DNA of 26,722 nucleotides from Candidatus Hodarchaeota archaeon (GTDB lineage: Archaea; Asgardarchaeota; Heimdallarchaeia; Hodarchaeales; Hodarchaeaceae). The stretch lies in the NCBI GenBank assembly GCA_016839815.1, contig JAEOTM010000134.1:1-26722 (forward strand). Direction: 5' to 3'. This document shows positions 1 to 12,286 of this stretch, one piece after another; within the stretch, counting starts at the first letter, position 1; every line of letters begins with the position of its first letter. The notes under the pieces were generated by a model. That model saw only the letters and a list, made by a program, of their open reading frames with translations, did not search any database and had not been told where the DNA came from. Both the position numbers and the translations under genes were made by a program.

Positions 1-1745
1 GCACCTTGCTGAGCTTGTTGAGCATATAGTTTCTGAGCTAGTTCATGAGCAATTTTTTCGAGATCTTCACTCTTCTTTGTTATCTCAGCAAAATTGCGTG
101 ATTGCATTGAGGATTTAAGTGATTCAATTGTACTCTCTGCATTACTCTTTATGGAAGCATCTACTTGCTCACCCATGTCTTTTATCATTTTGTCAACTTG
201 ATAAATGAGTGAATCTGCTTTATTAAATGCTTCAGCTTCTTTTAATCGTTCTTCATCTTCTGCTTCATATTTAGAAGCTTCATCAACCATTCGCTGGAAA
301 TCTTTATCGGAAAGTCCACTATCACTTTTTATAGTGATTTTTTGTTCATTACCAGTTCCGAGATCTTTTGCTGATACGTTAACTATACCATTGGCATCAA
401 TATCGAATTTAACTTCAATCTGAGGAACGCCTCGGGGGGCAGGGGGAATACCCACTAGCTGAAATTTTCCAAGTGTTATATTATCAGCAGCCATCTTCCT
501 TTCTCCTTGTAATACGTGAATTTCAACAGATGGTTGATTATCAGCTGCGGTAGAGAAAATTTGGCTTTTATCAGTCGGGATAGTGGTATTTCTCTCTATT
601 AAACGAGTAAATACTCGACCAAGAGTTTCTATTCCTAAAGAAAGTGGAGTTACATCGAGAAGTAGGACATCTTGGACATCTCCAGTTATAATTGCCGCTT
701 GAATTGCAGCTCCTAACGCTACACATTCATCAGGATTAAGTTCCTTCGTCGGTTCTTTGTTAAAGTAATTCCGAATGGCAGATTGGACTGCAGGAACACG
801 TGTAGATCCACCAACAAGCAAGATTTTATCAATTTCAGAGGGTTGCATTTTTGCATCTGATAATGCTCGCCGTGTTGGTCCCATTGCCTTTTCAATTAGG
901 TCTGCAATCATGATTTCGAATTTTGATCGCGAAATTGTCAAATTTAAGTGCTTAGGCCCAGTATTATCTGCATATACATATGGTAAATTGATTTCAGCAG
1001 AACTTTTTTGAGATAATTCAATTTTAGCCTGTTCAGCGGCATCCTTCAGCCTTTGCATTGCTATAGGATCTTTTGAGAGATCTAAACCACTCTGTTTTTG
1101 AAATTCTTCTACCATCCAATCCATAATCCTCTGATCAAAATCATCTCCACCTAAGCGATTATTTCCTGAAGTAGCTTTGACTTCAAATAACCCTTCAGAT
1201 AATTCCAAAATTGAAACATCAAATGTTCCCCCACCTAAATCAAAAACAAGAACTGTAGATTCTTCTTCCTTATCCATACCATACGCTAAAGATGCACTGG
1301 TCGGTTCATTAATAATTCGCAAAACTTCTAATCCTGCAATTTTTCCTGCATCTTTTGTTGCTTGACGTTGGGAGTCAGAGAAATAAGCAGGAACTGTTAT
1401 TACAGCCTGAGTAATAGTTTCTCCTAAATATGCTTCACCATCTCTCTTGAGTTTTTGTAGAATCATTGCACTAAGTTCAGCAGGTTTATAGACCTTATCA
1501 TCAATAGTTACAGAGAAACCAGTTCCCATTTCTCTTTTTATGGATCTTACTGTTCTCTCTGGGTTGGAAATGGCCTGTCTTTTAGCCAGTGTTCCAACAA
1601 CTCGTTCACCTTCTTTTGAAATTGTTATTACAGAAGGAGTAGTTCTTTGACCTTCCGCATTGGGAATAATCTTTGGTTTTCCGCCTTCCATTGTAGCAAT
1701 GGCGGAAAAGGTTGTACCTAAATCTATACCTATTGGTCTAACCAT
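1..1745 (-). CDS. dnaK: Molecular chaperone DnaK (Hsp70), 3' end runs off the window
   Basis: Not in the ORF track; translated by hand from the ATG at 1745: [15 protein letters not shown]...TVPAYF...EPT...[10 protein letters not shown]...LVGGSTRVP...[14 protein letters not shown]...[13 protein letters not shown] at the edge. GGTGA SD at 1753-1757. Lacks the ~23-aa N-terminal insert ([18 protein letters not shown]), as in archaeal/Firmicute-type DnaK. Confidence 0.98.
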
Positions 1746-1763
1746 TTTGTGTTCACCTTAATA

Positions 1764-2405
1764 TCATTTTTTTGCAATTATTACTTTACTAGGTCTTAAT
1801 AAGGAAGAATTCAGGATATATCCAGCCTGAACTTCTTCTAAAATAACGTTATCTTCTTCTCCTGAGTCTGTTCGGACAGATACTACTTCATGAAAATTGG
1901 GATCGAATGGAGTTCCAAGGGAATTCAGTTTCTCTACACCCTCATTTTTCAAGATAGCTAGGAAATGTTTTTCGACCGCGAGAAAACCATCTTTAAGGAC
2001 TTCCTGCTCATTTCCAGAGTCAACAAAACTATCTCTTGCTTTTTCTAAGGTATCTGCGAAATCAAGAAGCTTAATTATAAGATTAGAAGTAGCATTCTTT
2101 AATAATCTAGATCTTTCGGCGTTTGTTCGTTTTTCTAGATTTTCATAATCAGCTAAAGCGCGAAGATATCGATCTTTATTTTTCTGATTCTGCTCTTCCT
2201 TTTCTTCTAACTTGCTCCGTAATTTCTCAACTGTCTCTTCTAAATCATGAGGGTCAACTTTTTCTAAAGTTTGATTACTATTTGTAACATCGCTAGATGT
2301 AGGTTGAGGAGTTGTAGACTCTGATTCTTTGATTTGATTGTCGATATCATAGAATTCTGATTTATTTTCAGTACTTCTTGGGATTCGGTCTTCCATTAGA
2401 TTCAT
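1764..2405 (-). CDS. grpE: Nucleotide exchange factor GrpE
   Basis: YLRALADYENLEKR, FDPNFHEVV and GYILNSSLLRPSKV motifs; directly upstream of dnaK. The ATG at 2396 (SD GGAGTGA at 2406-2412) is a plausible alternative start. Confidence 0.97.
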   Translation of the reverse strand: MNLMEDRIPRSTENKSEFYDIDNQIKESESTTPQPTSSDVTNSNQTLEKVDPHDLEETVEKLRSKLEEKEEQNQKNKDRYLRALADYENLEKRTNAERSRLLKNATSNLIIKLLDFADTLEKARDSFVDSGNEQEVLKDGFLAVEKHFLAILKNEGVEKLNSLGTPFDPNFHEVVSVRTDSGEEDNVILEEVQAGYILNSSLLRPSKVIIAKK

Positions 2406-3143
2406 TCACTCCGTTTGACTCTTGAGTGTTACTTCTAGCTTATTCATTAGGCTTAATCCGCTTTCTGGTAGCAGATTCTTCTCATTTAGCCTTTTTAGAG
2501 AAGCTAGAAGTTCCGTACGTTTGGTTTTGATTTCTTTTTGAATAAGTCCAATTGAGATTGGAGCGGAACTCCTGAAGATCGTATAAGCCAGTTTCCGATC
2601 TTTTCGGTGATCGTCTCCCTCCAGCTTCATAGATATCGTTTCATGTAGTTCACCTGTTATTGAAAGCTTTTTTCCAAGGATAAAACTTTCAACAGATCCC
2701 AGTTTGTCAAGGATATCATTTAAAGACTGGATTTGTTCTGCATAATCTTGTTGATTACTCTGGACTGCGTGTGAAAGTGTGGAGGCTAAATCATTACTGA
2801 TTTCCTCTAGATGGGAATGTAGATTATCAATTGGTTTGGTTTGATGGCCAATTTCGATATCAAATACATCAATATCAAAAGTATGTTCACTTAGAGTTAT
2901 ACGTACTGACAGATTTTTCGCGATTCGATAGAGTTTTCTTGCTGGGCCATGTGGTCCGTCTACTAGTTCTTGAACCAACCATCCATTCTCTAATAAACAC
3001 TGTAGATGCCTTTGAAGATACTGTTGAGATCTTTCAAGTTCTTTAGCTAGCTGGAAAAGATATTTAGGTTCATGGGCGATTGATCGTAGAATTTTTCTTC
3101 GTGTTTCATTGCCTACAAGCTCGAAGAACTCTTTTTCATCCAA
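2406..3143 (-). CDS. Phr/HSR1-like archaeal heat-shock transcriptional regulator (ArsR-type winged helix)
   Basis: N-terminal GNETRRKIL...QLAKEL...HLQCL...ARKLYRI...LSVRITL resembles Pyrococcus Phr; central helical region and a second HTH-like C-terminal segment. TTG start with AGGAG SD; its TGA abuts the grpE ATG. Confidence 0.85.
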   Translation of the reverse strand: MDEKEFFELVGNETRRKILRSIAHEPKYLFQLAKELERSQQYLQRHLQCLLENGWLVQELVDGPHGPARKLYRIAKNLSVRITLSEHTFDIDVFDIEIGHQTKPIDNLHSHLEEISNDLASTLSHAVQSNQQDYAEQIQSLNDILDKLGSVESFILGKKLSITGELHETISMKLEGDDHRKDRKLAYTIFRSSAPISIGLIQKEIKTKRTELLASLKRLNEKNLLPESGLSLMNKLEVTLKSQTE

Positions 3144-3146
3144 ATG

Positions 3147-3195
3147 AATGTCAAACTCCTATCTTTTACACTTTTTATTTCAGGAGATCGACATT
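3147..3195. promoter_or_regulatory. 14-bp imperfect inverted repeat covering the regulator's SD and touching a TATA box
   Basis: AATGTCAAACTCCT (3147-3160), 21-nt spacer, AGGAGATCGACATT (3182-3195); 12 of 14 positions complementary. A minus-strand TTATAAAT box lies at 3200-3193. Confidence 0.55.
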
Positions 3196-3275
3196 TATAA
3201 CCTACTAAAATAATCTTTGACTAGACACATATTTTTTTGACTAGCAAATTCCATCCAGGAAGTTGTTAAAAGAGA

Positions 3276-4235
3276 CTATTCCTCTTCATCCTCAAAACTG
3301 TCATCAGTACTTAAGAAATCTGGATCCTGGTTCATCATAATACGCATTTCTTCAATTGAGAGTACTTTTTTCTTCTTCGAGCTTAATTTTTCTTGGATAA
3401 TTGCTTTCTGTTCTTCTAAAATCTCGGCACTAGCCTTTTCTCGTTCAAGTTGAACCCGTTCTTTTTGAGCTCGGTTTTGCTCTCTAAAAATACTCGATTT
3501 TTCTCGTAGCGACTTATTTAGAGTACGGAATTCCTCTCGTAAAGTGCGTATCTCATCAGCTCGCTCTAGAAAAGCCTTATGGCATCTATCCGCTTCATCT
3601 TTTGCTTTCTTCCCCGTATCATAAAGTTCCGTTAATTCTTGATGAGATCTTTGAGAATTCTCAACTAAATCCTGAAAATCTTTCCAACTATGGTCTAAGA
3701 AACCTCTTAGATGGTTTATTTCCCTGTTAATTTCTTTTCGTGCTTTAAGCTTTTCAGTGGAGACAGAGATATCGCCTAATTGCTCCATTAGAACATTTAC
3801 TTGCTCAGTAAGCTGTCTTTCTTCTGCAATCCCCATTCGAGATGTTGTTTGAATTTTCCAGTCGAGACTATCAATACGTTTCCTTAAGCTATGCGATTTT
3901 TTGATATCATTTTCTGTGATATCCATTGATTTAATCTCTTCTTGCAGGGATTTAGCCTTTTCTATGAGCTCTTTCATCTCTTCAAGTACACTTCGGCGTA
4001 CTGCCTTAAGTTCTTGAATCGCACGGTTATTCTTATCGCGTTGATCTTTTAATCCTCTTACCTTAGCAAAATTCTCAGATGCCAACTTGTTCAGATTATC
4101 CCTCTCTTCACGATGTTGGTTTCGCTCTTTTTCCAGTTTTCGGAGATTACTGAGTAATTCAGCTTTCTGATCTCGAAGTTGAACAATTTCCTCTCTTAAA
4201 CTTCGTAGATCTTGAACTTCAAAAGCTTTTGTCAT
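3276..4235 (-). CDS. Conserved archaeal long coiled-coil protein (COG1340-like)
   Basis: Almost entirely heptad E/K/R-rich, with the family-like IDSLDWKIQTT...EERQL segment, ADRCHKAF, and a C-terminal KVLSIEEM. Start placed at MTKAF (4235); the ORF extends to 4271. Confidence 0.8.
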   Translation of the reverse strand: MTKAFEVQDLRSLREEIVQLRDQKAELLSNLRKLEKERNQHREERDNLNKLASENFAKVRGLKDQRDKNNRAIQELKAVRRSVLEEMKELIEKAKSLQEEIKSMDITENDIKKSHSLRKRIDSLDWKIQTTSRMGIAEERQLTEQVNVLMEQLGDISVSTEKLKARKEINREINHLRGFLDHSWKDFQDLVENSQRSHQELTELYDTGKKAKDEADRCHKAFLERADEIRTLREEFRTLNKSLREKSSIFREQNRAQKERVQLEREKASAEILEEQKAIIQEKLSSKKKKVLSIEEMRIMMNQDPDFLSTDDSFEDEEE

Positions 4236-4615
4236 ATATATCACACGTACAGAATTAAACTGCCAGTACATAACACTGGTGTCAGTTTGATAACAGAAAA
4301 ACCCGTCAGACTCTACTTCACTGAAAACTGAGGACTTTTTAAATTTGCTTTGCAGGAATATTCTTTCAAAATGTTCGTTAACTATTCTATCCGATGAAAT
4401 AATCGATTTGATTTGACTGAATTACTGGTTTTAGATTAGGAAAAGCTCATGACTTACAGATAGATCTGATTCTGATGAAAAAATAACACGTAAATTACAC
4501 TGATTGCTTTGATTAGACTTTACATAACTCTTAGATTCACTTACAAGTTTTTTGTCTTGTATATTCCTAGTATTGATATCCTCATCAAATTGCTTATTTA
4601 AGATAAATTTTGGTG

Positions 4616-5359
4616 ATGGCCTCACAGATAATGAGAAATCCTTCAACTAGTGCAGTAATTTTTGACTTAGATGGAACTTTAATCGATTCTATGCGTTCAT
4701 TCAATGATATAGTTATTTCTAATCTTGAAAAAAATGGTTTATTTATTACCATAGAAGAAATGGAGAAAATTGGTATCCATTTGCTAGAGAAATTTCAGAC
4801 ACCACAAACAAATAGTGGATTCAGACTAGTTTTCAACATATTTTGGAACATCGGAAGAAAGATGGGTTTAGGAAGAATGAAAGCTATTCGATTTGCTCTT
4901 ACCTGCATTAGTAAAGTCAAATCGGTGTATAGAAATGCCCCGATTTTTCCTGATACCAGAGAAAGTCTCTCTAAATTATCAAAATATGGATTTCAATTAG
5001 GTATTTGCACAAATGCATCACGTAAGCAATTAGAAGACACTATCGAAAAGCACGGCATTAAGGATTATTTCCATCCAAAAGCTCTTATTTCAAGGGATGA
5101 TGTATTTCGGCTTAAACCTGATCCTGAAGGATTACTTCTTGCAATTAAGGCGTGCTCAACTAATCCTCAATTTAGCTACTTCATAGGTGACATGCCAGTT
5201 GATATCTTGGCGGGTAATGATGCAGGGGTCGAAACAATCGGATTAACAACAGGTTTGATCAGTAAATCAGTTTTACAGCGTTATAGCGATCCCTCAACTG
5301 TCGTGGATTCTTTAGAAGAAGCTACAGCATGGATAATAAATACTAAAGCTCTTGACTAA
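4616..5359 (+). CDS. HAD-superfamily hydrolase (Gph/PpaX-like)
   Basis: Motif I FDLDGTL, motif II CTN, motif III KPDP, motif IV GDMPVD. Start uncertain (4610, 4616 or 4631). Confidence 0.9.
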   Translation: MASQIMRNPSTSAVIFDLDGTLIDSMRSFNDIVISNLEKNGLFITIEEMEKIGIHLLEKFQTPQTNSGFRLVFNIFWNIGRKMGLGRMKAIRFALTCISKVKSVYRNAPIFPDTRESLSKLSKYGFQLGICTNASRKQLEDTIEKHGIKDYFHPKALISRDDVFRLKPDPEGLLLAIKACSTNPQFSYFIGDMPVDILAGNDAGVETIGLTTGLISKSVLQRYSDPSTVVDSLEEATAWIINTKALD

Positions 5360-5549
5360 ATATATGATCAATATTGACCATAGATCGGTTTCATTACAGC
5401 TCCTCATGATCCTCTATAGCGACAAAAATAAGGATAAATTTATTTTAACCATCGTTCAAATGCTTGTATAAGTCTGAAACACGATAAATGCTAATTTTTG
5501 GATAAAAGGCAATAAAAACATCTTCATTAACAAAAATGGAAGAAAAAAA

Positions 5550-6599
5550 ATGAACGATTCGAATTTTAAAGAAGTGTTTGCGAAATTAAGTATTCTTGGT
5601 AGGTCTATTGAAGAGAAAATGTATGAATTCCTACTTAGAGATATTCATGATGACTTTAAGGATTTGGTAAAATGGCAAACATCAACAGGTGGAAAGAGAT
5701 TACGCCCAGCATTAACATTACTATTTGCACGGGCATTCGGAGCTTCAGAGGAGAATCTCGAACCTAGATCAGCTGCTGCAGGTATTGAATTAATACATAC
5801 TTACTCTTTAATCCTAGACGATATTATTGATCGTGGAGATCTTAGACGGGGAAAAAAAACCACTAGAGCAAAGTTTGGTGATGAATTTGCGATTCTTGCG
5901 GCAATAATCTACAGAGAAGCAATTTATGAAGCCGCTAAATCTACTGGTAAGTATTTTAAAGATGCACTTGAAGTTTATTCTACAGCAATTCGTCAGTTGA
6001 CAGAGGGCGAACGATTAGACATACTTTTTGAACAAAAAGAAGATAGAGAGAACACATACTTCCAACTCAATCGTTTCACAGAGGTGTCCCTATCGAATTA
6101 TATCGAAATGATTTCAGGAAAAACCGCTGCATTATTAGCTGCTGCTTGTAAACTGGGAGCAATAGTAGCTGGAGCTTCTCTCGAGGAACAAAGGTATGCG
6201 GAAAAGTATGGTCAGGCTGCAGGTATTGCTTTTCAGATTGCAGATGATTACTTGGATATTTTTTCTTCTGCTGACACTTTTGGAAAGGTTATTTATAAAG
6301 ATATAATCGAACAGAAGCTAGGCAATTTCGTGATTGTCCATGCTCTCAGGTTACTTGATTCTACAGATTCTCAGCATTTGAAAAGTTACCTAACGGATAA
6401 AGATATTTCTGATGAAGAACGGATTAAAAAATGTAACCCCCTTATAGAAAAATCCAATGTTAAAGAATTTGTGATTGCTGAGGCACAAAAATGGGCCGAT
6501 CAAGCAAAAAGTAATATCCTAACCCTTGAGTTTAAAGATGCTTCAATGAAAGAGTTGCTAGCCAAAGTTGCTGATTTTTCAGTAAAAAGAGCGTTTTAG
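5550..6599 (+). CDS. idsA: Polyprenyl diphosphate synthase, probably short-chain GGPP synthase
   Basis: GGKRLRP, FARM DDIID followed by RRG, KT, SARM FQIADDYLD. A bulky Tyr five residues before FARM (YSLIL-DD) is typical of short-chain archaeal GGPP synthases. Confidence 0.9.
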   Translation: MNDSNFKEVFAKLSILGRSIEEKMYEFLLRDIHDDFKDLVKWQTSTGGKRLRPALTLLFARAFGASEENLEPRSAAAGIELIHTYSLILDDIIDRGDLRRGKKTTRAKFGDEFAILAAIIYREAIYEAAKSTGKYFKDALEVYSTAIRQLTEGERLDILFEQKEDRENTYFQLNRFTEVSLSNYIEMISGKTAALLAAACKLGAIVAGASLEEQRYAEKYGQAAGIAFQIADDYLDIFSSADTFGKVIYKDIIEQKLGNFVIVHALRLLDSTDSQHLKSYLTDKDISDEERIKKCNPLIEKSNVKEFVIAEAQKWADQAKSNILTLEFKDASMKELLAKVADFSVKRAF

Positions 6600-6609
6600 T
6601 TACCAAGTA

Positions 6610-7221
6610 TTAACTATTCGCTGCTTTTTCCATCTTCTCCTCAATTCCCTCAATTTCTTCTAAACCAGTTTTTAGAATTTTCTCTAACTCGGAAATCTTG
6701 CTTTGTAAGACAGAAATGGTTTCTTCATTTTCTTTTTGAGCAAGCTCCTGACCACAAACTGTACATAAGAATCCAAATTCAAATGCATCAGAGAATGTAA
6801 CTGGAGTATGTCCTTCTTCACAAACATAAAGTAGGTTTCTCTGTTCATAGTCCAAGCGTTGTTTTAATTTCTTTATAGTTTGTTTTCGACGACTTACAAT
6901 TAAATCTCTTATTCTTTCCCAAATAGGAGACCAATAATATACAAAATATCCTGTTTCTTTATCTCGAACGCGTCGGTATCTTGCGAGGGACCTTTCATTC
7001 AATTTATAAAGTGATTTTCTGACTTCTTTAAGAGCAATCCTTACAATATCTCCCTCATCAGAAGGTTCTGTTTTATCACTTTCTTGCTCTGTATCCTTAT
7101 TCAATATATTAACTATATCCTCATCAATGATCTCGCGTTCCTCTAATAAAATATTCAGGACTTTAACTGTTACTTCATCAGTTAATTTTAAAATAACATC
7201 ATCTAGCTGGGAATAGGACAC
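6610..7221 (-). CDS. tfe: Transcription factor E (TFE/TFIIE-alpha)
   Basis: Winged-helix VRKSLYKL...RDKETGYFVYYW and zinc ribbon CEEGH...AFEFGFLCTVCG; GTG start. Confidence 0.93.
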   Translation of the reverse strand: MSYSQLDDVILKLTDEVTVKVLNILLEEREIIDEDIVNILNKDTEQESDKTEPSDEGDIVRIALKEVRKSLYKLNERSLARYRRVRDKETGYFVYYWSPIWERIRDLIVSRRKQTIKKLKQRLDYEQRNLLYVCEEGHTPVTFSDAFEFGFLCTVCGQELAQKENEETISVLQSKISELEKILKTGLEEIEGIEEKMEKAANS

Positions 7222-7295
7222 TTTTAAACCTTCTACTATTAGTTACACAGGTTAAAGTACTGTTTGTATATACTGATAATATATGTTATTAGCAG

Positions 7296-7303
7296 AAAAA
7301 AAA
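7296..7303 (-). terminator. Possible oligo-T terminator after the roadblock gene
   Basis: An A8 run on + (T8 on -) about 16 nt after the roadblock stop; archaeal terminators are typically U-tracts. Confidence 0.3.
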
Positions 7304-7319
7304 TGTTATCATTAGATGG

Positions 7320-7793
7320 TTAAAAGTTTTCGAGTTCTTTGAGTGCTGCCATTATTGATTGGGATTCGGGTTTTTTCATTTTAACAGCAGAGGGTTCAGT
7401 CAATCTATCCATAAGTGATGCTAGCGACTCCGATGATTCTTTCATCCGCACACGAATTAACCCCAGTTGAGCATCCGATTCAGCTACTACCACTAATACT
7501 CCTCGTTCTCCACTTTGAGCGGTTAAAATTTTACCATCTGTGAATTCAGCTAGCATAATACCCAACTCCCCAAGAGTTAATGCGCTTCCTTGTTCTGCGG
7601 CTCCGCAAAACACAGCAGAAGCGATGGCTCCAATACTTTCAAGATCAAAGGCCCCCATAGTTTCTGATACTAATAACCTAGAGGCTCTAGCAATCGTTAA
7701 ACCTGTTCTATCACCTAGTAATGTCACTTTAATTGATGTATCACTTTTTAACAGACGAGTTAACTCGCGGTGTATTTCGTCTCTTTGTTGCAT
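7320..7793 (-). CDS. Roadblock/LC7 (MglB/LAMTOR2-like) domain protein
   Basis: Typical pattern LLGDRTGLTIA...SIGAIASAVF...LGELGIMLAEFTDGKIL...VLVVVAESDAQLGLIR; GGTGA SD at 7801-7805. Confidence 0.9.
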   Translation of the reverse strand: MQQRDEIHRELTRLLKSDTSIKVTLLGDRTGLTIARASRLLVSETMGAFDLESIGAIASAVFCGAAEQGSALTLGELGIMLAEFTDGKILTAQSGERGVLVVVAESDAQLGLIRVRMKESSESLASLMDRLTEPSAVKMKKPESQSIMAALKELENF

Positions 7794-7930
7794 CCAGTTT
7801 TCACCTAATTCTGTTTAACCTTCGATTCATTCTTCCGCTCAACAATCCTTATTTTCCATGTTCCTTATATTCTTTTTCTTATATTTTCTGGGGTCTCGTA
7901 ATAACTAACATTACTTGAATTCTTTTCAAC

Positions 7931-8650
7931 TTAAAGAATGACTACGACAACCACTAAGGCAATCACAGATCCTGCTAGAAGGGCTAAAAGAGTTCGATTC
8001 TGAGTTAGCTTTCTAGAAATTTTTGTTAGTGTAGATTGAATTTTTTGTAGTTTATTATCGACGTCTGTAATTTTTGTATCAATTTGATCGATTTTAACTC
8101 CCTGCTCGTCAAGTCTCCTAGTCAATGTAGCTAAATTGGCTGAAATATTATTCATTTGAGCATTCATTTGATCCATTGATTCCAAAAATGAATTTTCAAG
8201 CATCTGAAGCCTCTCTTCAAGTGTAACTACATTTTTCGAAGTTATCGCTTCACCCGGATAGGCTAATTCATAAATTCTATTTCCTACTTCTTCACCTTTG
8301 AGAGGACTCGCCTGAAGATCCATAGACTCAATAGATTCACCAATATTCGTCAAAGTGCCACGTAAAGATTTCATTTTAAGCTTTGTTTCACTAAGCTCAT
8401 TTAATTTCTCATTTTGAAGACGAATAATAGGGGGTTGAATGAGTCTAGGTAGATTGGCAATGATTCTGGAAGAAAGAGAGCGTTTATCTATAACTTGTGA
8501 TTTAAAACCTTCAGATATGTCATCAGTCATATTTTCCATTGATTCGAGTACAGAATGTAAATCATTGACAAATCCTTTAATCATTTCTTTTTCTGTTTGC
8601 TCTGCAGGTCTTTTAAACCATTTAGATAACCTCTTTGTCAGTAAGGCCAA
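7931..8650 (-). CDS. Tail-anchored coiled-coil protein with a Q-SNARE-like motif
   Basis: Heptad region aa 159-211 with central LDEQG, a basic linker and a C-terminal TM helix (aa 221-239); no signal peptide. TTG start preceded by a strong AAGGAGG SD. Confidence 0.8.
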   Translation of the reverse strand: MALLTKRLSKWFKRPAEQTEKEMIKGFVNDLHSVLESMENMTDDISEGFKSQVIDKRSLSSRIIANLPRLIQPPIIRLQNEKLNELSETKLKMKSLRGTLTNIGESIESMDLQASPLKGEEVGNRIYELAYPGEAITSKNVVTLEERLQMLENSFLESMDQMNAQMNNISANLATLTRRLDEQGVKIDQIDTKITDVDNKLQKIQSTLTKISRKLTQNRTLLALLAGSVIALVVVVVIL

Positions 8651-9133
8651 AAGTTGATCCTCCTTCTCATCGTCACTTATTTTTTGTACGATTTCTATTT
8701 CTCAAAAGAAAAAACTTTTCATTGAGAAAGACTAAATTAAATATAGATTTCATGATTGAATAATATTTTGTTTAACCTAAGTAATAATAAAGATGAGGGT
8801 TAATTGAATCAAATTAATTAGTTCCTAATATTCAAATCTATCCATCTAGACTTGTTAAATTCATTCTCATTCACTTTTAGCTCGAAATCAGTCTATTCGG
8901 TTTTTTTACTTTCATTAGTTTTAAAACAACCTTTGAAATAATGAGTGGGCTTAAGATAATTCATTCTACATTACCAAATCTTTATTTAAAACTAAGAGAT
9001 CAAAAGAATGTACTACTGAAAATCATCTAAAAACAATTTTGAATTAGTGATATAATCGAAGTTTCCATGAGTTGTTCAAATAATATACCCTGAGACTCAT
9101 ACAAAATATCAAAAAACTATGGATTGAACATGA

Positions 9134-12100
9134 ATGTCAAAATACGCCTCGATTAAAAAGTTTGCGTTAATTATAACGCTACTCCTACTTGTTATGAATA
9201 ATAACTTCAGTTCTATTACTGGGGATACACATTTGGATAGCAGAAAGGAAGTAAATAAGCTATCTCAAGAGATTACCGAATTAGAACAACAATATAATGA
9301 ACGAATAAATTCAGAAGAAAAAATGTACCTCTTATTCTTCCAAAGAGAGGCTGATTATTCAGGATTCATCACTAAATTTCGAACTGAAATGAATTTTAAT
9401 GGATTGATGGGAACTATTGTAGAAGTAACACCTAATAAGCTCTCTGATATTGTAAAAAAGACATCTGGTCTATCTTTTGATAATGTTCATCCAATTTCAA
9501 ACACAGAGAGAAAAATGGTTCCTTTTTCCTCTTTAGTCTCACCAATAAAGTCCAGTATTCAATCTAAATCATCAGCAAAAGCTATTGGAGTTGATACTTT
9601 ATGGAGGATGGGATACCGAGGACAAGGGGCTACTATCTCAATCTTTGATGAGGGGATAAACGCCAGCCATCCTGACTTTAGTTTCCCAAATGGAACTTCA
9701 CGAATTAAGGCTGCTAAGGGATTCATTAACACTATTTATGGTAATAAAGCAAATTTAACAAATAAAGCAGGGGAACATGGAACTTGGGTTGCAGGTATTG
9801 CAGGAGGAGGTGGCATTAAAACAGCAGATAATCAAGGTATAGCAAATGAATCTTGGTTGCTTGACGCTGATTTGGATGAAGGACCAGAAGATTACTTAGA
9901 TTTTACAATCTTAGGTGAACTCGCAGCAATTAATTGGGCAATAGAAAATGGAGTCGATATAATCAATCGGAGTTATGGGATTTCAGATGGGGAAGACGCA
10001 TATTGGTATATGAGATTGATTCCTGATTATCAAGCACGCGTAGCAGCTATACGTCAAGCTACAAAACTTGGCGTCTTATTTGTACATTCTGCTGGTAATG
10101 AAGGAAGTTCTCCTTACACAATATCAGCGGATAATACTATCCATGAAATTTCTGTTGGCGCTACAGACCAAGGTATGTATAATCTTGCCATGTATAGTAG
10201 CCGTGGACCAATTTGGAGGACGAATGCTTTAGCTCCTGATGTAGTAGCCCCTGGTACCAATGTTCTGACACCTGATGTTAATGGGGGATATGATAGTCCG
10301 CAGGGTACTTCATTTTCTGCTCCACATGTTGCTGGAGTTGCAGCGATCTTAATTGGTGCAATGAGACAGAATGGAATTGATGTAAATCCTGGTACAATTA
10401 AAGCTTCACTAATGGCGACAGCATCAGATCTAGGAGCAGAAATAATCGATCAAGGGACTGGCCAAGTTAATGCTTCAGCAGCTTTTGAAGCATTATTGAA
10501 TGCACCTCGGTCTGGAAATCACGCAATCATTGGTGTCACTAATCCAAAGAATTTGCATTTTACTGATTTTCCCACAGTACTTCAAGGATCAAAGTTTAAA
10601 CGGCCTTTTACATTTGTGTCTTCGGAATTAAATAATGTATCTGTTCAAATCGAAGGGAATTTTTCCTCATTTCTTACAATTAAAGAGCAGATCTGGGTCA
10701 ACAATTCTAATACACTAAGATTAAGTGAAACTGAACTTTCTAATGGCACTCTGAGTGATTATTACTCACATACGCTCACACTACATGTTATTGTTCCTGA
10801 TGATGCTCCGATTGGTTTCTATTCAGGAAATATCAAATTCAGAGTAAATTCTACTGATATTTATTCTGTTCCCTTCCAATTTAACATCGAAACGGCAAAT
10901 AAGAAGATATTATTTGTCACGAAAAATAGAGCCAGTTTTCCCTTTAACACATTAGGGGAATTTCGTGACTTTCAGATTGGTTTAAGCAATCAAGGAATTG
11001 TATTAATTGAGAACAATTCTGCAATTACATCTTCATCACTCGCTGGATATGATTCTATTTGGATAGCTGCTGGTAATAGAACGTATCAGAAGTATCTGTA
11101 TCTTGTGGGATTGGATGATATTGCAAGTTCAGGAGAGGAAACAATAGTTTCAGCTCAAGAACAAAATGCAATAAAATCTTTTGTTTCAAATGGTGGAAGC
11201 TTAATTCTTACACCATTTAGTACCCCTCTAGGAATGGAATCTCTCCTCAATGGATGGGGGATCTCAACACAAGAAATTACACCAAATCTGGGTATAAAAC
11301 CTGCGGAAATCGCCCATTTCAACTCCATAGGAAAGTCTACGCACTATTTTAATCCATCAGGTTCATATTTTTCCATTACCTCTCCTGCAACTCCATTAGC
11401 TTATGTAAATGAACGGGAAAATGTTGTCATGGCATCGTATGATGATCCTGATGGAGGAAGAGTTGTTATAGTTTCAGGAAGTTCATTCATAACCACACGA
11501 GGATACAATAATAGAATAACTGATGCATTTCAATATCAAGATATGTTATTTAATGATCGGTTAGCTACAGATATTTTAGATTGGAGTACCTCATCTCAGC
11601 AATTGTTTGGATCATTCGAACGTATTAATAATGAGATAACTATTTCTCTTCACGCCTCGACCAATTTTAGTCCAGAAGATATGGCTAGCATAAAAGGAAA
11701 ATCCATTAATGTAGCAACAGGTTTGGAATCGAATATTTCTATTCCCCTAAGCGGTACTAATGGATGGTTTAACTTTTCTCTTACATTGTCTGAAGGAGTG
11801 TACATGTTCAATTTTACTTGGGAATCAGAATTCGTCTCATTTGAATTTATTACTGACGAAACTAAACCAAAAATAGGTATTCTGGGTATGGAGAATAATT
11901 CTTATCTGACAGAAAGAACTGATATAACATTCTGGTTCCGTGATGACGAATCGGGAATTAATAGGTATAATTGTCAAATGATGGTTGATGGAAATCCTGT
12001 TGGGTTCAATGGTCCCAAAGTAAACTTGACAGGCACTGGATTTTATATTGAAAAATACCTTATTCCGAGTGATTTTACCTCAGGTACTCATGAAATCAGT

Positions 12101-12286
12101 TTAACAGTTTATGATATTGCAGGGAATTCTGCTGTTATCAGATTTGTATTCATTCGAGGAACTCCTCCTGATTCAGATACTACTAGAGGAAAAGCATCGG
12201 GTTTCTTATTGGGGTCAGTATTGGGAGTGATTTTAACTGCATGGATTATTCAATATAAAAAGAGAACGAAAATTTACAGTAAGTAG
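9134..12286 (+). CDS. Membrane-anchored S8 subtilisin-like serine protease, Site-1-protease-like architecture
   Basis: Signal peptide and prodomain; triad IFDEG / HGTWVAG / GTSFSAPHV, oxyanion SAGN; then an Ig-like region, a class-I-GATase-like alpha/beta domain, further beta-rich domains, and a C-terminal TM plus basic tail. About 20 N-x-S/T sequons. Confidence 0.92.
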   Translation: MSKYASIKKFALIITLLLLVMNNNFSSITGDTHLDSRKEVNKLSQEITELEQQYNERINSEEKMYLLFFQREADYSGFITKFRTEMNFNGLMGTIVEVTPNKLSDIVKKTSGLSFDNVHPISNTERKMVPFSSLVSPIKSSIQSKSSAKAIGVDTLWRMGYRGQGATISIFDEGINASHPDFSFPNGTSRIKAAKGFINTIYGNKANLTNKAGEHGTWVAGIAGGGGIKTADNQGIANESWLLDADLDEGPEDYLDFTILGELAAINWAIENGVDIINRSYGISDGEDAYWYMRLIPDYQARVAAIRQATKLGVLFVHSAGNEGSSPYTISADNTIHEISVGATDQGMYNLAMYSSRGPIWRTNALAPDVVAPGTNVLTPDVNGGYDSPQGTSFSAPHVAGVAAILIGAMRQNGIDVNPGTIKASLMATASDLGAEIIDQGTGQVNASAAFEALLNAPRSGNHAIIGVTNPKNLHFTDFPTVLQGSKFKRPFTFVSSELNNVSVQIEGNFSSFLTIKEQIWVNNSNTLRLSETELSNGTLSDYYSHTLTLHVIVPDDAPIGFYSGNIKFRVNSTDIYSVPFQFNIETANKKILFVTKNRASFPFNTLGEFRDFQIGLSNQGIVLIENNSAITSSSLAGYDSIWIAAGNRTYQKYLYLVGLDDIASSGEETIVSAQEQNAIKSFVSNGGSLILTPFSTPLGMESLLNGWGISTQEITPNLGIKPAEIAHFNSIGKSTHYFNPSGSYFSITSPATPLAYVNERENVVMASYDDPDGGRVVIVSGSSFITTRGYNNRITDAFQYQDMLFNDRLATDILDWSTSSQQLFGSFERINNEITISLHASTNFSPEDMASIKGKSINVATGLESNISIPLSGTNGWFNFSLTLSEGVYMFNFTWESEFVSFEFITDETKPKIGILGMENNSYLTERTDITFWFRDDESGINRYNCQMMVDGNPVGFNGPKVNLTGTGFYIEKYLIPSDFTSGTHEISLTVYDIAGNSAVIRFVFIRGTPPDSDTTRGKASGFLLGSVLGVILTAWIIQYKKRTKIYSK

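Follow-up and report, generated by a model that had tools for sequence, protein, structure and literature searches.

An old and partly conserved SNARE-Roadblock gene neighbourhood in Hodarchaeales

We examined a window of 26,722 nucleotides, an entire 26.7-kb contig (JAEOTM010000134.1) from a metagenome-assembled genome of Hodarchaeales (Heimdallarchaeia, Asgard). In it a gene for a SNARE-like protein is followed on the same strand by a gene for a Roadblock/LC7 protein, here called Robl-S, and is separated by a divergent spacer from a gene for an S8-family subtilase (S8). A preliminary description of this stretch had suggested that the three genes may form a co-regulated module acting on endomembranes, in which the Roadblock protein would be a longin-like partner of the SNARE, and had allowed that the adjacency could be due to chance. 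We find that SNARE and Robl-S, each a gene of a known kind, make up a real and old neighbourhood that is conserved in part. The genes and spacers concerned are the following.

7931-8650, minus strand: SNARE-like gene (239 aa), TTG start with GGAGG 9 nt upstream (open reading frame, translation)
7794-7930, minus strand: SNARE-Robl-S spacer, 137 bp (comparison of spacers from 19 loci)
7320-7793, minus strand: Robl-S, Roadblock/LC7 protein of 157 aa (open reading frame list, Pfam)
8651-9133, no strand: divergent spacer between SNARE and S8, 483 bp, AT-rich (sequence)
9134-12286, plus strand: S8 subtilase, 1050 aa (open reading frame, Pfam)
6610-7221, minus strand: transcription factor E alpha (TFE), downstream neighbour of Robl-S, listed as context and not as part of a module (Pfam TFIIE_alpha, NCBIfam PRK06266)

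The positions and strands of the open reading frames (ORFs) and the lengths of the 137-bp and 483-bp spacers had been described exactly to the base, and the gene assignments also held. The Robl_LC7 model (PF03259) matches Robl-S at 29.8 bits against a cut-off of 23, Peptidase_S8 matches the protease at 138 bits (Pfam), and in the SNARE-like protein F155 and Q183 have the numbers that they have in the characterized Heimdall SNARE HPS1.

Within the genus of the window, the order SNARE, Robl-S, TFE is kept at all 18 loci, inside a larger conserved block that extends from dnaK to hutH. The genome of the window holds about 10 Roadblock genes among roughly 4000, which gives a given gene a chance of about 0.5% of having one as its immediate neighbour; since the SNARE-Robl-S adjacency recurs in relatives, it is more than a coincidence peculiar to this genome. 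The protease behaves differently. An S8 gene lies between SNARE and hutI at 6 of 17 informative genus loci. A search at E ≤ 1e-40 detected no orthologue in 11 of the 15 other genus genomes, one of them closed and two 96-99% complete. Close relatives differ in this respect, G019 having the gene and G004 lacking it. This patchy presence and absence points to an accessory gene that the neighbourhood has lost more than once, and S8 is dispensable within the genus.

To follow the pair outside the genus, further lineages were drawn from a profile search of 1.8 billion proteins and from contig look-ups, and were scanned with local Roadblock and SNARE hidden Markov models and with tblastn. The gene orders found are as follows.

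g3 (L105): transmembrane protein, SNARE, 73 bp, Robl-S, Ski2-like helicase
L109: polyprenyl synthase (opposite strand), then SNARE, about 690 bp, Robl-S fragment
L108: a 479-aa gene followed by Robl-S and TFE; then two genes and SNARE (opposite strand), which adjoins hutI-GS
G022/L115, L110 and L112: tandem SNARE duplicates, no Roadblock ORF within 5-6 kb

A co-directional SNARE-Robl-S pair is thus present in three of seven Hodarchaeales lineages, the two genes lie near each other in one more, and the pair is broken in four of the seven (L108, G022, L110 and L112). The pair is kept with different flanks, which indicates that the adjacency is ancestral and independent of TFE. Adjacency of Robl-S and TFE is confined to the window's genus (g1) and lineage L108, and in G022 TFE stands beside hutH on a different contig (L123, G022:C640), suggesting that a TFE...hut block is ancestral and that Roadblock and SNARE moved out separately in the G022 lineage. 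The genes upstream of SNARE in g3 and L108 (283 and 285 aa) show no homology to each other. Near the SNARE genes of 16 loci in families f5-f7, no Roadblock-fold ORF was found even at E ≤ 1. The synteny survey proposed earlier therefore gave a divided answer: the pair is kept beyond the genus in two lineages, and it is broken in four of seven and absent at the 16 f5-f7 loci. The case in which Roadblock would be linked only to TFE is ruled out, because the pair occurs in two further lineages with different flanks.

Tandem SNARE duplicates were seen in three lineages (L039/L115, which represent the G022 lineage, L110 and L112), all without an adjacent Roadblock gene. At least two of these duplications are independent, G022a and G022b being sisters and P0079 and P0083 likewise. 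In all four single-copy SNARE lineages Robl-S is adjacent or within 3.3 kb. The two tandem SNARE genes of L112 (positions 1-8848, GCA_048940615.1) are surrounded by four genes for Arf/Ras/Rag-like small GTPases, at distances of up to about 4 kb to either side. The Robl-S gene of G022 stands at the head of a same-strand row (L085 7841-14765, G022:C333) of genes for a gelsolin-like protein (376 aa), a Ras-like protein (183 aa), an MglA-like protein (271 aa) and a 157-aa ORF. At the end of the row is an S8 protease of 936 aa that is anchored at its C-terminus and groups on a long branch with the clade of the window S8 (approximate likelihood-ratio test support 87). The genome of the window has its own block of gelsolin, Ras-like and MglA-like genes (C118:4671-6965), with no Roadblock gene.

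The intergenic regions were compared for transcription signals. Among 19 SNARE-Robl-S spacers, the 3' 100 nt can be aligned across the genus and the 5' part cannot. The conserved part contains the elements listed here, together with a T tract downstream of Robl-S.

7863-7880, minus strand: box resembling a B recognition element (BRE) and TATA element, a purine-rich BRE-like run plus a TATA-like stretch, consensus GAAAAAGAATTTAAA, about 70 nt before the Roadblock ATG
7817-7834, minus strand: conserved leader element GTGAATAGAAAGT, between the BRE/TATA-like box and the Shine-Dalgarno sequence, recognisable in g3
7801-7807, minus strand: Shine-Dalgarno sequence TAGGTGA of the Roadblock gene (spacer alignment)
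7296-7303, minus strand: T8 tract, 17 nt past the Roadblock stop codon, before TFE

Elements like the BRE/TATA box and the leader are also found in the 73-nt spacer of g3. Because the BRE/TATA-like box and the leader are conserved in the spacer, the Roadblock gene probably has its own promoter, which speaks against a simple operon. Some members of the genus have a mini-ORF of three codons (ATG-CGG-AAA-TAG) overlapping the Roadblock Shine-Dalgarno sequence. As described earlier, no T-tract lies between SNARE and Roadblock in the window, where the longest coding-strand T run of the spacer is 2. Tracts of T5-T7 occur in 5 of 19 SNARE-Robl-S spacers and in 8 of 18 Robl-S-TFE spacers, and T8-T9 follows Roadblock only in the subclade of the window (window, L029, L031). 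The T8 tract at 7296-7303 is likely an archaeal terminator. The regions upstream of SNARE could not be aligned across the genus, which leaves no support for a motif common to the SNARE and Roadblock upstream regions. The supplementary expression tables of the paper on a cultured Hodarchaeales contain, in the files examined, no roadblock, SNARE or TFE entries.

The divergent spacer between SNARE and S8 has a GC content of 25.9%, compared to 36.7% for the window, and contains no ORF of at least 30 aa. An Rfam scan of 6500-9300 returned only a chance snoRNA-like match (E 0.37). The spacer holds an imperfect 21-nt inverted repeat (8915-8935 / 8975-8995), 81% complementary, with a 39-nt loop.

The AlphaFold2 (AF2) model of Robl-S has a mean predicted local distance difference test score (pLDDT) of 84. 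It starts with a helix and shows an alpha-beta-beta-alpha-beta-beta-beta-alpha core followed by a C-terminal helix; the C-terminal tail, ALKELENF, is family-wide. The NCBIfam MglB model matches Robl-S weakly. The top Foldseek matches of the model were 9jue (the MK-D1 Roadblock3 dimer), the MglB structures 3t1r/1j3w/6izw (MglB by itself and bound to MglA), 7f8m (a Thor Roadblock) and LAMTOR2, with E-values of 3e-10 to 1e-8 for 9jue and the three MglB structures. Against MglB and Asgard Roadblock proteins (9jue/7yh1, 7f8m; Tran et al. 2024, PMC10933270), the Foldseek probability was 1.0 and the template modelling score (target) 0.8-0.9. Since its best fold matches are Asgard Roadblock, MglB and LAMTOR2, Robl-S appears to be an MglB-like GTPase-regulator paralogue. 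Among the Foldseek matches listed there was no longin domain, no feature of the model marks Robl-S as longin-like, and the idea of a longin-like Roadblock is not borne out. All 33 aligned MglB-like Roadblock proteins of Heimdallarchaeia end in A-L-x-E-L-E-x-F, after a variable linker of low confidence; by analogy, this tail may be a docking helix resembling the C-terminal helix of MglB.

A class-wide search found Robl-S orthologues in Hodarchaeales only; they are 87-99% identical within the genus, and identity falls to 59% in G023 and 53% in G022. In a maximum-likelihood tree they form a clade of g1, g3 and g2 (support 92/87), whose sister group comprises every other MglB-like protein of the class. 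Genus-wide identity is 82-88% for DnaK, 65-88% for TFE and 58-72% for SNARE, so that of Robl-S is the highest of the neighbourhood. With the MglB/MglA system of Thermus thermophilus and Myxococcus xanthus (PDB 3t1s, 3t12, 6izw), Robl-S shares a Roadblock fold to which a further helix is added at the C-terminus. Its nearest paralogue in the window genome (C122) retains the classical pairing of MglB and MglA genes, being directly followed by an MglA-like GTPase gene, an arrangement found in g1, g2 and g3. The window genome has three MglA-like GTPases in all (C122 26803-27384, C118 6204-6965 and C127 about 31508-32206). Robl-S itself differs in that, in the genus of the window, no GTPase gene adjoins it and SNARE adjoins instead; its dimerisation and its GAP/GEF activity are predictions. 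It shows no linkage to MglA-like GTPases of the C118 or C127 type within the genus, at distances of 6 kb to more than 2 Mb, and the window contig carries no GTPase gene. Asgard GTPase and Roadblock genes lie mostly outside operons (Tran et al. 2024, PMC10933270). A comparison can also be drawn with the longin SNAREs VAMP7, Sec22 and Ykt6 and with Mon1-Ccz1, TRAPP and Ragulator LAMTOR2/3, which share a small alpha-beta-alpha sandwich domain linked to the fusion machinery in cis or in trans, and LAMTOR2 is among the fold matches of Robl-S. Unlike the longin SNAREs, the pair described here has a separate protein with Roadblock topology, and the N-terminus of the window SNARE is helical, with no longin domain.

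The SNARE-like protein has a helical region at its N-terminus, followed by a SNARE motif at about 156-212 and a C-terminal transmembrane helix at about 221-239. A basic linker, SRKLTQNRT, precedes the 19 hydrophobic residues that run to the C-terminus; tail anchor and linker are kept in all 17 aligned members of the family, in which Q183 (0-layer) is nearly invariant. The Pfam V-SNARE_C model matches the window protein at 20.8 bits, under its cut-off of 27.1, and the SNARE, V-SNARE_C and Synaptobrevin models give sub-threshold matches in 5-9 of the 17 members. Searched against the PDB, the family profile matched chains of syntaxin-6, syntaxin-7, SNAP-25/29, syntaxin-1A and VAMP2 in register and weakly, syntaxin-6 at E 1.6e-4 and in the company of designed coiled coils.

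HPS1 was shown by crystallography to form a homotetrameric four-helix bundle over residues 157-215 with Q183 in the zero layer, and its F155 was mutated to W (Bentahar et al., bioRxiv 10.64898/2026.10.19.760048). On the equal numbering of F155 and Q183 and on family membership, we identify the SNARE-like protein as the orthologue of HPS1, so that the gene is already known; the HPS1 accession PWI47941.1 is absent among the cluster members listed. The resemblance to HPS1/HPS2 extends to the length of about 239 aa, the tail anchor (Neveu et al., bioRxiv 10.1101/810531; 10.64898/2026.10.19.760048), the N-terminal helical region and the 16-layer SNARE motif, and we noted no structural difference. 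A 'Hod' SNARE clade and tandem duplications in two genomes have been described (10.64898/2026.10.19.760048), and both datasets agree in showing usually one gene per genome, a Hodarchaeales clade and a few tandem duplications. The published work on Heimdall SNAREs detects neither Sec1/Munc18 (SM) proteins nor tethers, and mouse NSF fails to disassemble the complex. Neither of the two Heimdall SNARE papers mentions a Roadblock neighbour or the genomic context (10.1101/810531; 10.64898/2026.10.19.760048). Our profile search of 83 genomes of the class found the family in f1, f2, f5, f6 and f7, and in none of the 31 f3 genomes or the 12 f4 genomes. No SNARE-Roadblock fusion was found in the 1.8-billion-protein search, where the 18 SNARE clusters at E ≤ 1e-30 all have lengths of 117-282 aa. 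In the single-contig genome G015, the SNARE orthologue (L037 8004-8507) aligns at residues 73-239 only and its N-terminal part is unrecognisable; it is labelled partial in the source record and may be truncated or rearranged.

The protease is laid out as a signal/transmembrane segment and a pro-region, then a catalytic domain, a stretch of about 370 residues that runs collinear with the domains of human site-1 protease (S1P) other than the catalytic one, further beta-rich domains, a C-terminal transmembrane helix and a basic tail. The catalytic residues D172, H215, N322 and S393 are invariant across 11 homologues. An AF2 model built from these 11 homologues is of medium confidence (pLDDT 73.5), and its top Foldseek matches are human S1P (9csd_A/8uw8_A, E 1e-31 to 5e-30, about 798 columns). 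The next family follows at 5e-22, so that S1P leads the PDB matches by ten orders of magnitude. VIA aligned 575 residues between positions 142-823 of the model and 190-875 of S1P (Z 36.5, root-mean-square deviation 5.0). At the level of sequence, the S1P match is one among several to the catalytic domain, is confined to that domain, ends at residue 456 and ranks below archaeal Tk-SP; the Pfam MBTPS1_3rd/4th models do not match at E ≤ 0.1, and the likeness to the third and fourth MBTPS1 domains is a weak Atlas lead (0.77). The earlier label S1P-like thus holds for the modelled architecture, at fold level. In common with MBTPS1/SKI-1 (PDB 8uw8, 9csd), the protein has about 1050 aa, a signal peptide, a pro-region, an S8 domain, collinear post-catalytic domains and a C-terminal transmembrane helix with a basic tail; it differs in residues 824-1010, the last 200 or so, which fall outside the alignment. 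Similar anchored S8 proteins of about 1000 aa are found in other families of Heimdallarchaeia, and we found no paper on site-1 protease in Asgard archaea.

Taken together, we favour the explanation that the locus is an old Hodarchaeales gene order with three separately expressed genes and no co-regulated three-gene machine, with a probability of about 0.6. In this explanation, the HPS1 orthologue would be tail-anchored and would form a homotetrameric bundle as published for HPS1. Robl-S, a Hodarchaeales-only MglB-like duplicate, most likely forms homodimers to which a small GTPase docks and by which it is regulated, by analogy with MglB and with the nearest paralogue and its neighbouring MglA-like GTPase gene. 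A BRE/TATA promoter of its own, in the spacer, would drive its transcription, perhaps with a degree of read-through from SNARE. The S8 protein would be a type-I membrane-anchored protease with an S1P-like domain order whose catalytic domain faces the exterior, and it probably works at the surface of a peptide-degrading archaeon. Our analysis shows the gene identities, the folds, the synteny pattern and the promoter-like motif, and from these we infer the dimerisation, the GTPase partner, the transcript structure and the topology of the protease.

Four observations weigh against this explanation. The pair persists in g3 and L109 with both original flanks changed, which is a classical signature of functional coupling; the window spacer without a T-tract makes co-transcription with SNARE by read-through possible; Robl-S is more conserved than DnaK, implying an important and strongly constrained partner; and G022 has, 3.6 kb away from Robl-S, a distant S8 relative that belongs to the same broad clade. 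The first two would fit a genuine functional pair, in which Robl-S, alone or with a small GTPase, would control the place or time of SNARE assembly. Co-directional adjacency in three of seven lineages between unrelated flanks, a spacer of just 73 bp in g3 and the fact that Robl-S is limited to the order with the 'Hod' SNARE clade all speak for such a pair, as does the fact that Robl-S links SNARE, across genomes, to the gelsolin, Ras-like and MglA-like row, and so do the L112 tandem SNAREs among four Arf/Rag-like GTPase genes. There are eukaryotic analogues in Mon1-Ccz1, TRAPP and Ragulator, which act upstream of SNARE-mediated fusion, or in the autoinhibitory longin domains of VAMP7, Sec22 and Ykt6. 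We nevertheless consider a functional pair a real but doubtful possibility. The pair has come apart in four of the seven lineages, and in one of those, L108, the neutral adjacencies SNARE-hutI and Robl-S-TFE, which are surely non-functional, persist while SNARE and Robl-S are split, so that slow decay of an ancestral order is sufficient. Roadblock has a separate conserved promoter-like box upstream, the SNARE clusters yielded no fusion protein, the f5-f7 SNAREs have no Roadblock gene nearby, and the two proteins evolve at unequal rates (87-98% identity for Robl-S and 58-72% for SNARE). The genome of the window has 55 Arf-model matches; small GTPase genes being so abundant, GTPase neighbours are weak evidence, and the window contig has none. 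A more specific proposal, that a Robl-S dimer with an MglA/Arf-like GTPase, possibly of the gelsolin-linked cluster, sets the assembly site of an HPS1-type SNARE in a chain from GTPase through Roadblock platform to SNARE that predates eukaryotes, is in our judgement unlikely.

Two other readings fare worse. If it is the adjacency of Robl-S and TFE that matters, with Robl-S linked to transcription and SNARE a bystander, one would point to its retention at 18 of 18 genus loci and in L108, where SNARE has moved off, and to spacers down to 44 nt. We consider this very improbable, because g3 has a Ski2-like helicase after Robl-S instead of TFE, TFE in G022 is on another contig beside hutH, and the window has a T8 terminator-like tract between Robl-S and TFE. 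We know of no role of Roadblock proteins in transcription initiation. The three-gene module of the preliminary description, with protease, SNARE and Roadblock co-regulated from the divergent region and acting on a proto-endomembrane, draws on the 483-bp AT-rich spacer that the genes share in the window, the S1P-like architecture and the related S8 gene of about 940 aa near Robl-S in G022. It is largely refuted by the pattern of presence and absence, and we find it hardly credible: S8 is missing from 11 of 17 genus loci and, at the threshold used, from the rest of those genomes, and the SNARE loci of g3, L108, L109, L110 and L112 lack it as well. The SNARE upstream region is unconserved. The signal peptide and C-terminal anchor of the protease predict an extracellular catalytic domain, whereas Roadblock and the SNARE motif would face the cytosol. 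The cultured Hodarchaeales paper reports no endomembrane system, only rare vesicle-like structures.

A conserved neighbour of a Heimdall SNARE would be a cheap first candidate for a partner in its regulation. Our findings narrow this candidate to one Hodarchaeales-specific, MglB-like Roadblock paralogue and drop the protease from the hypothesis. If SNARE and Robl-S do not interact, the locus is an ordinary inherited gene order around a known gene. If they do, it would provide an archaeal precedent for the control of membrane fusion by longin/roadblock platforms.

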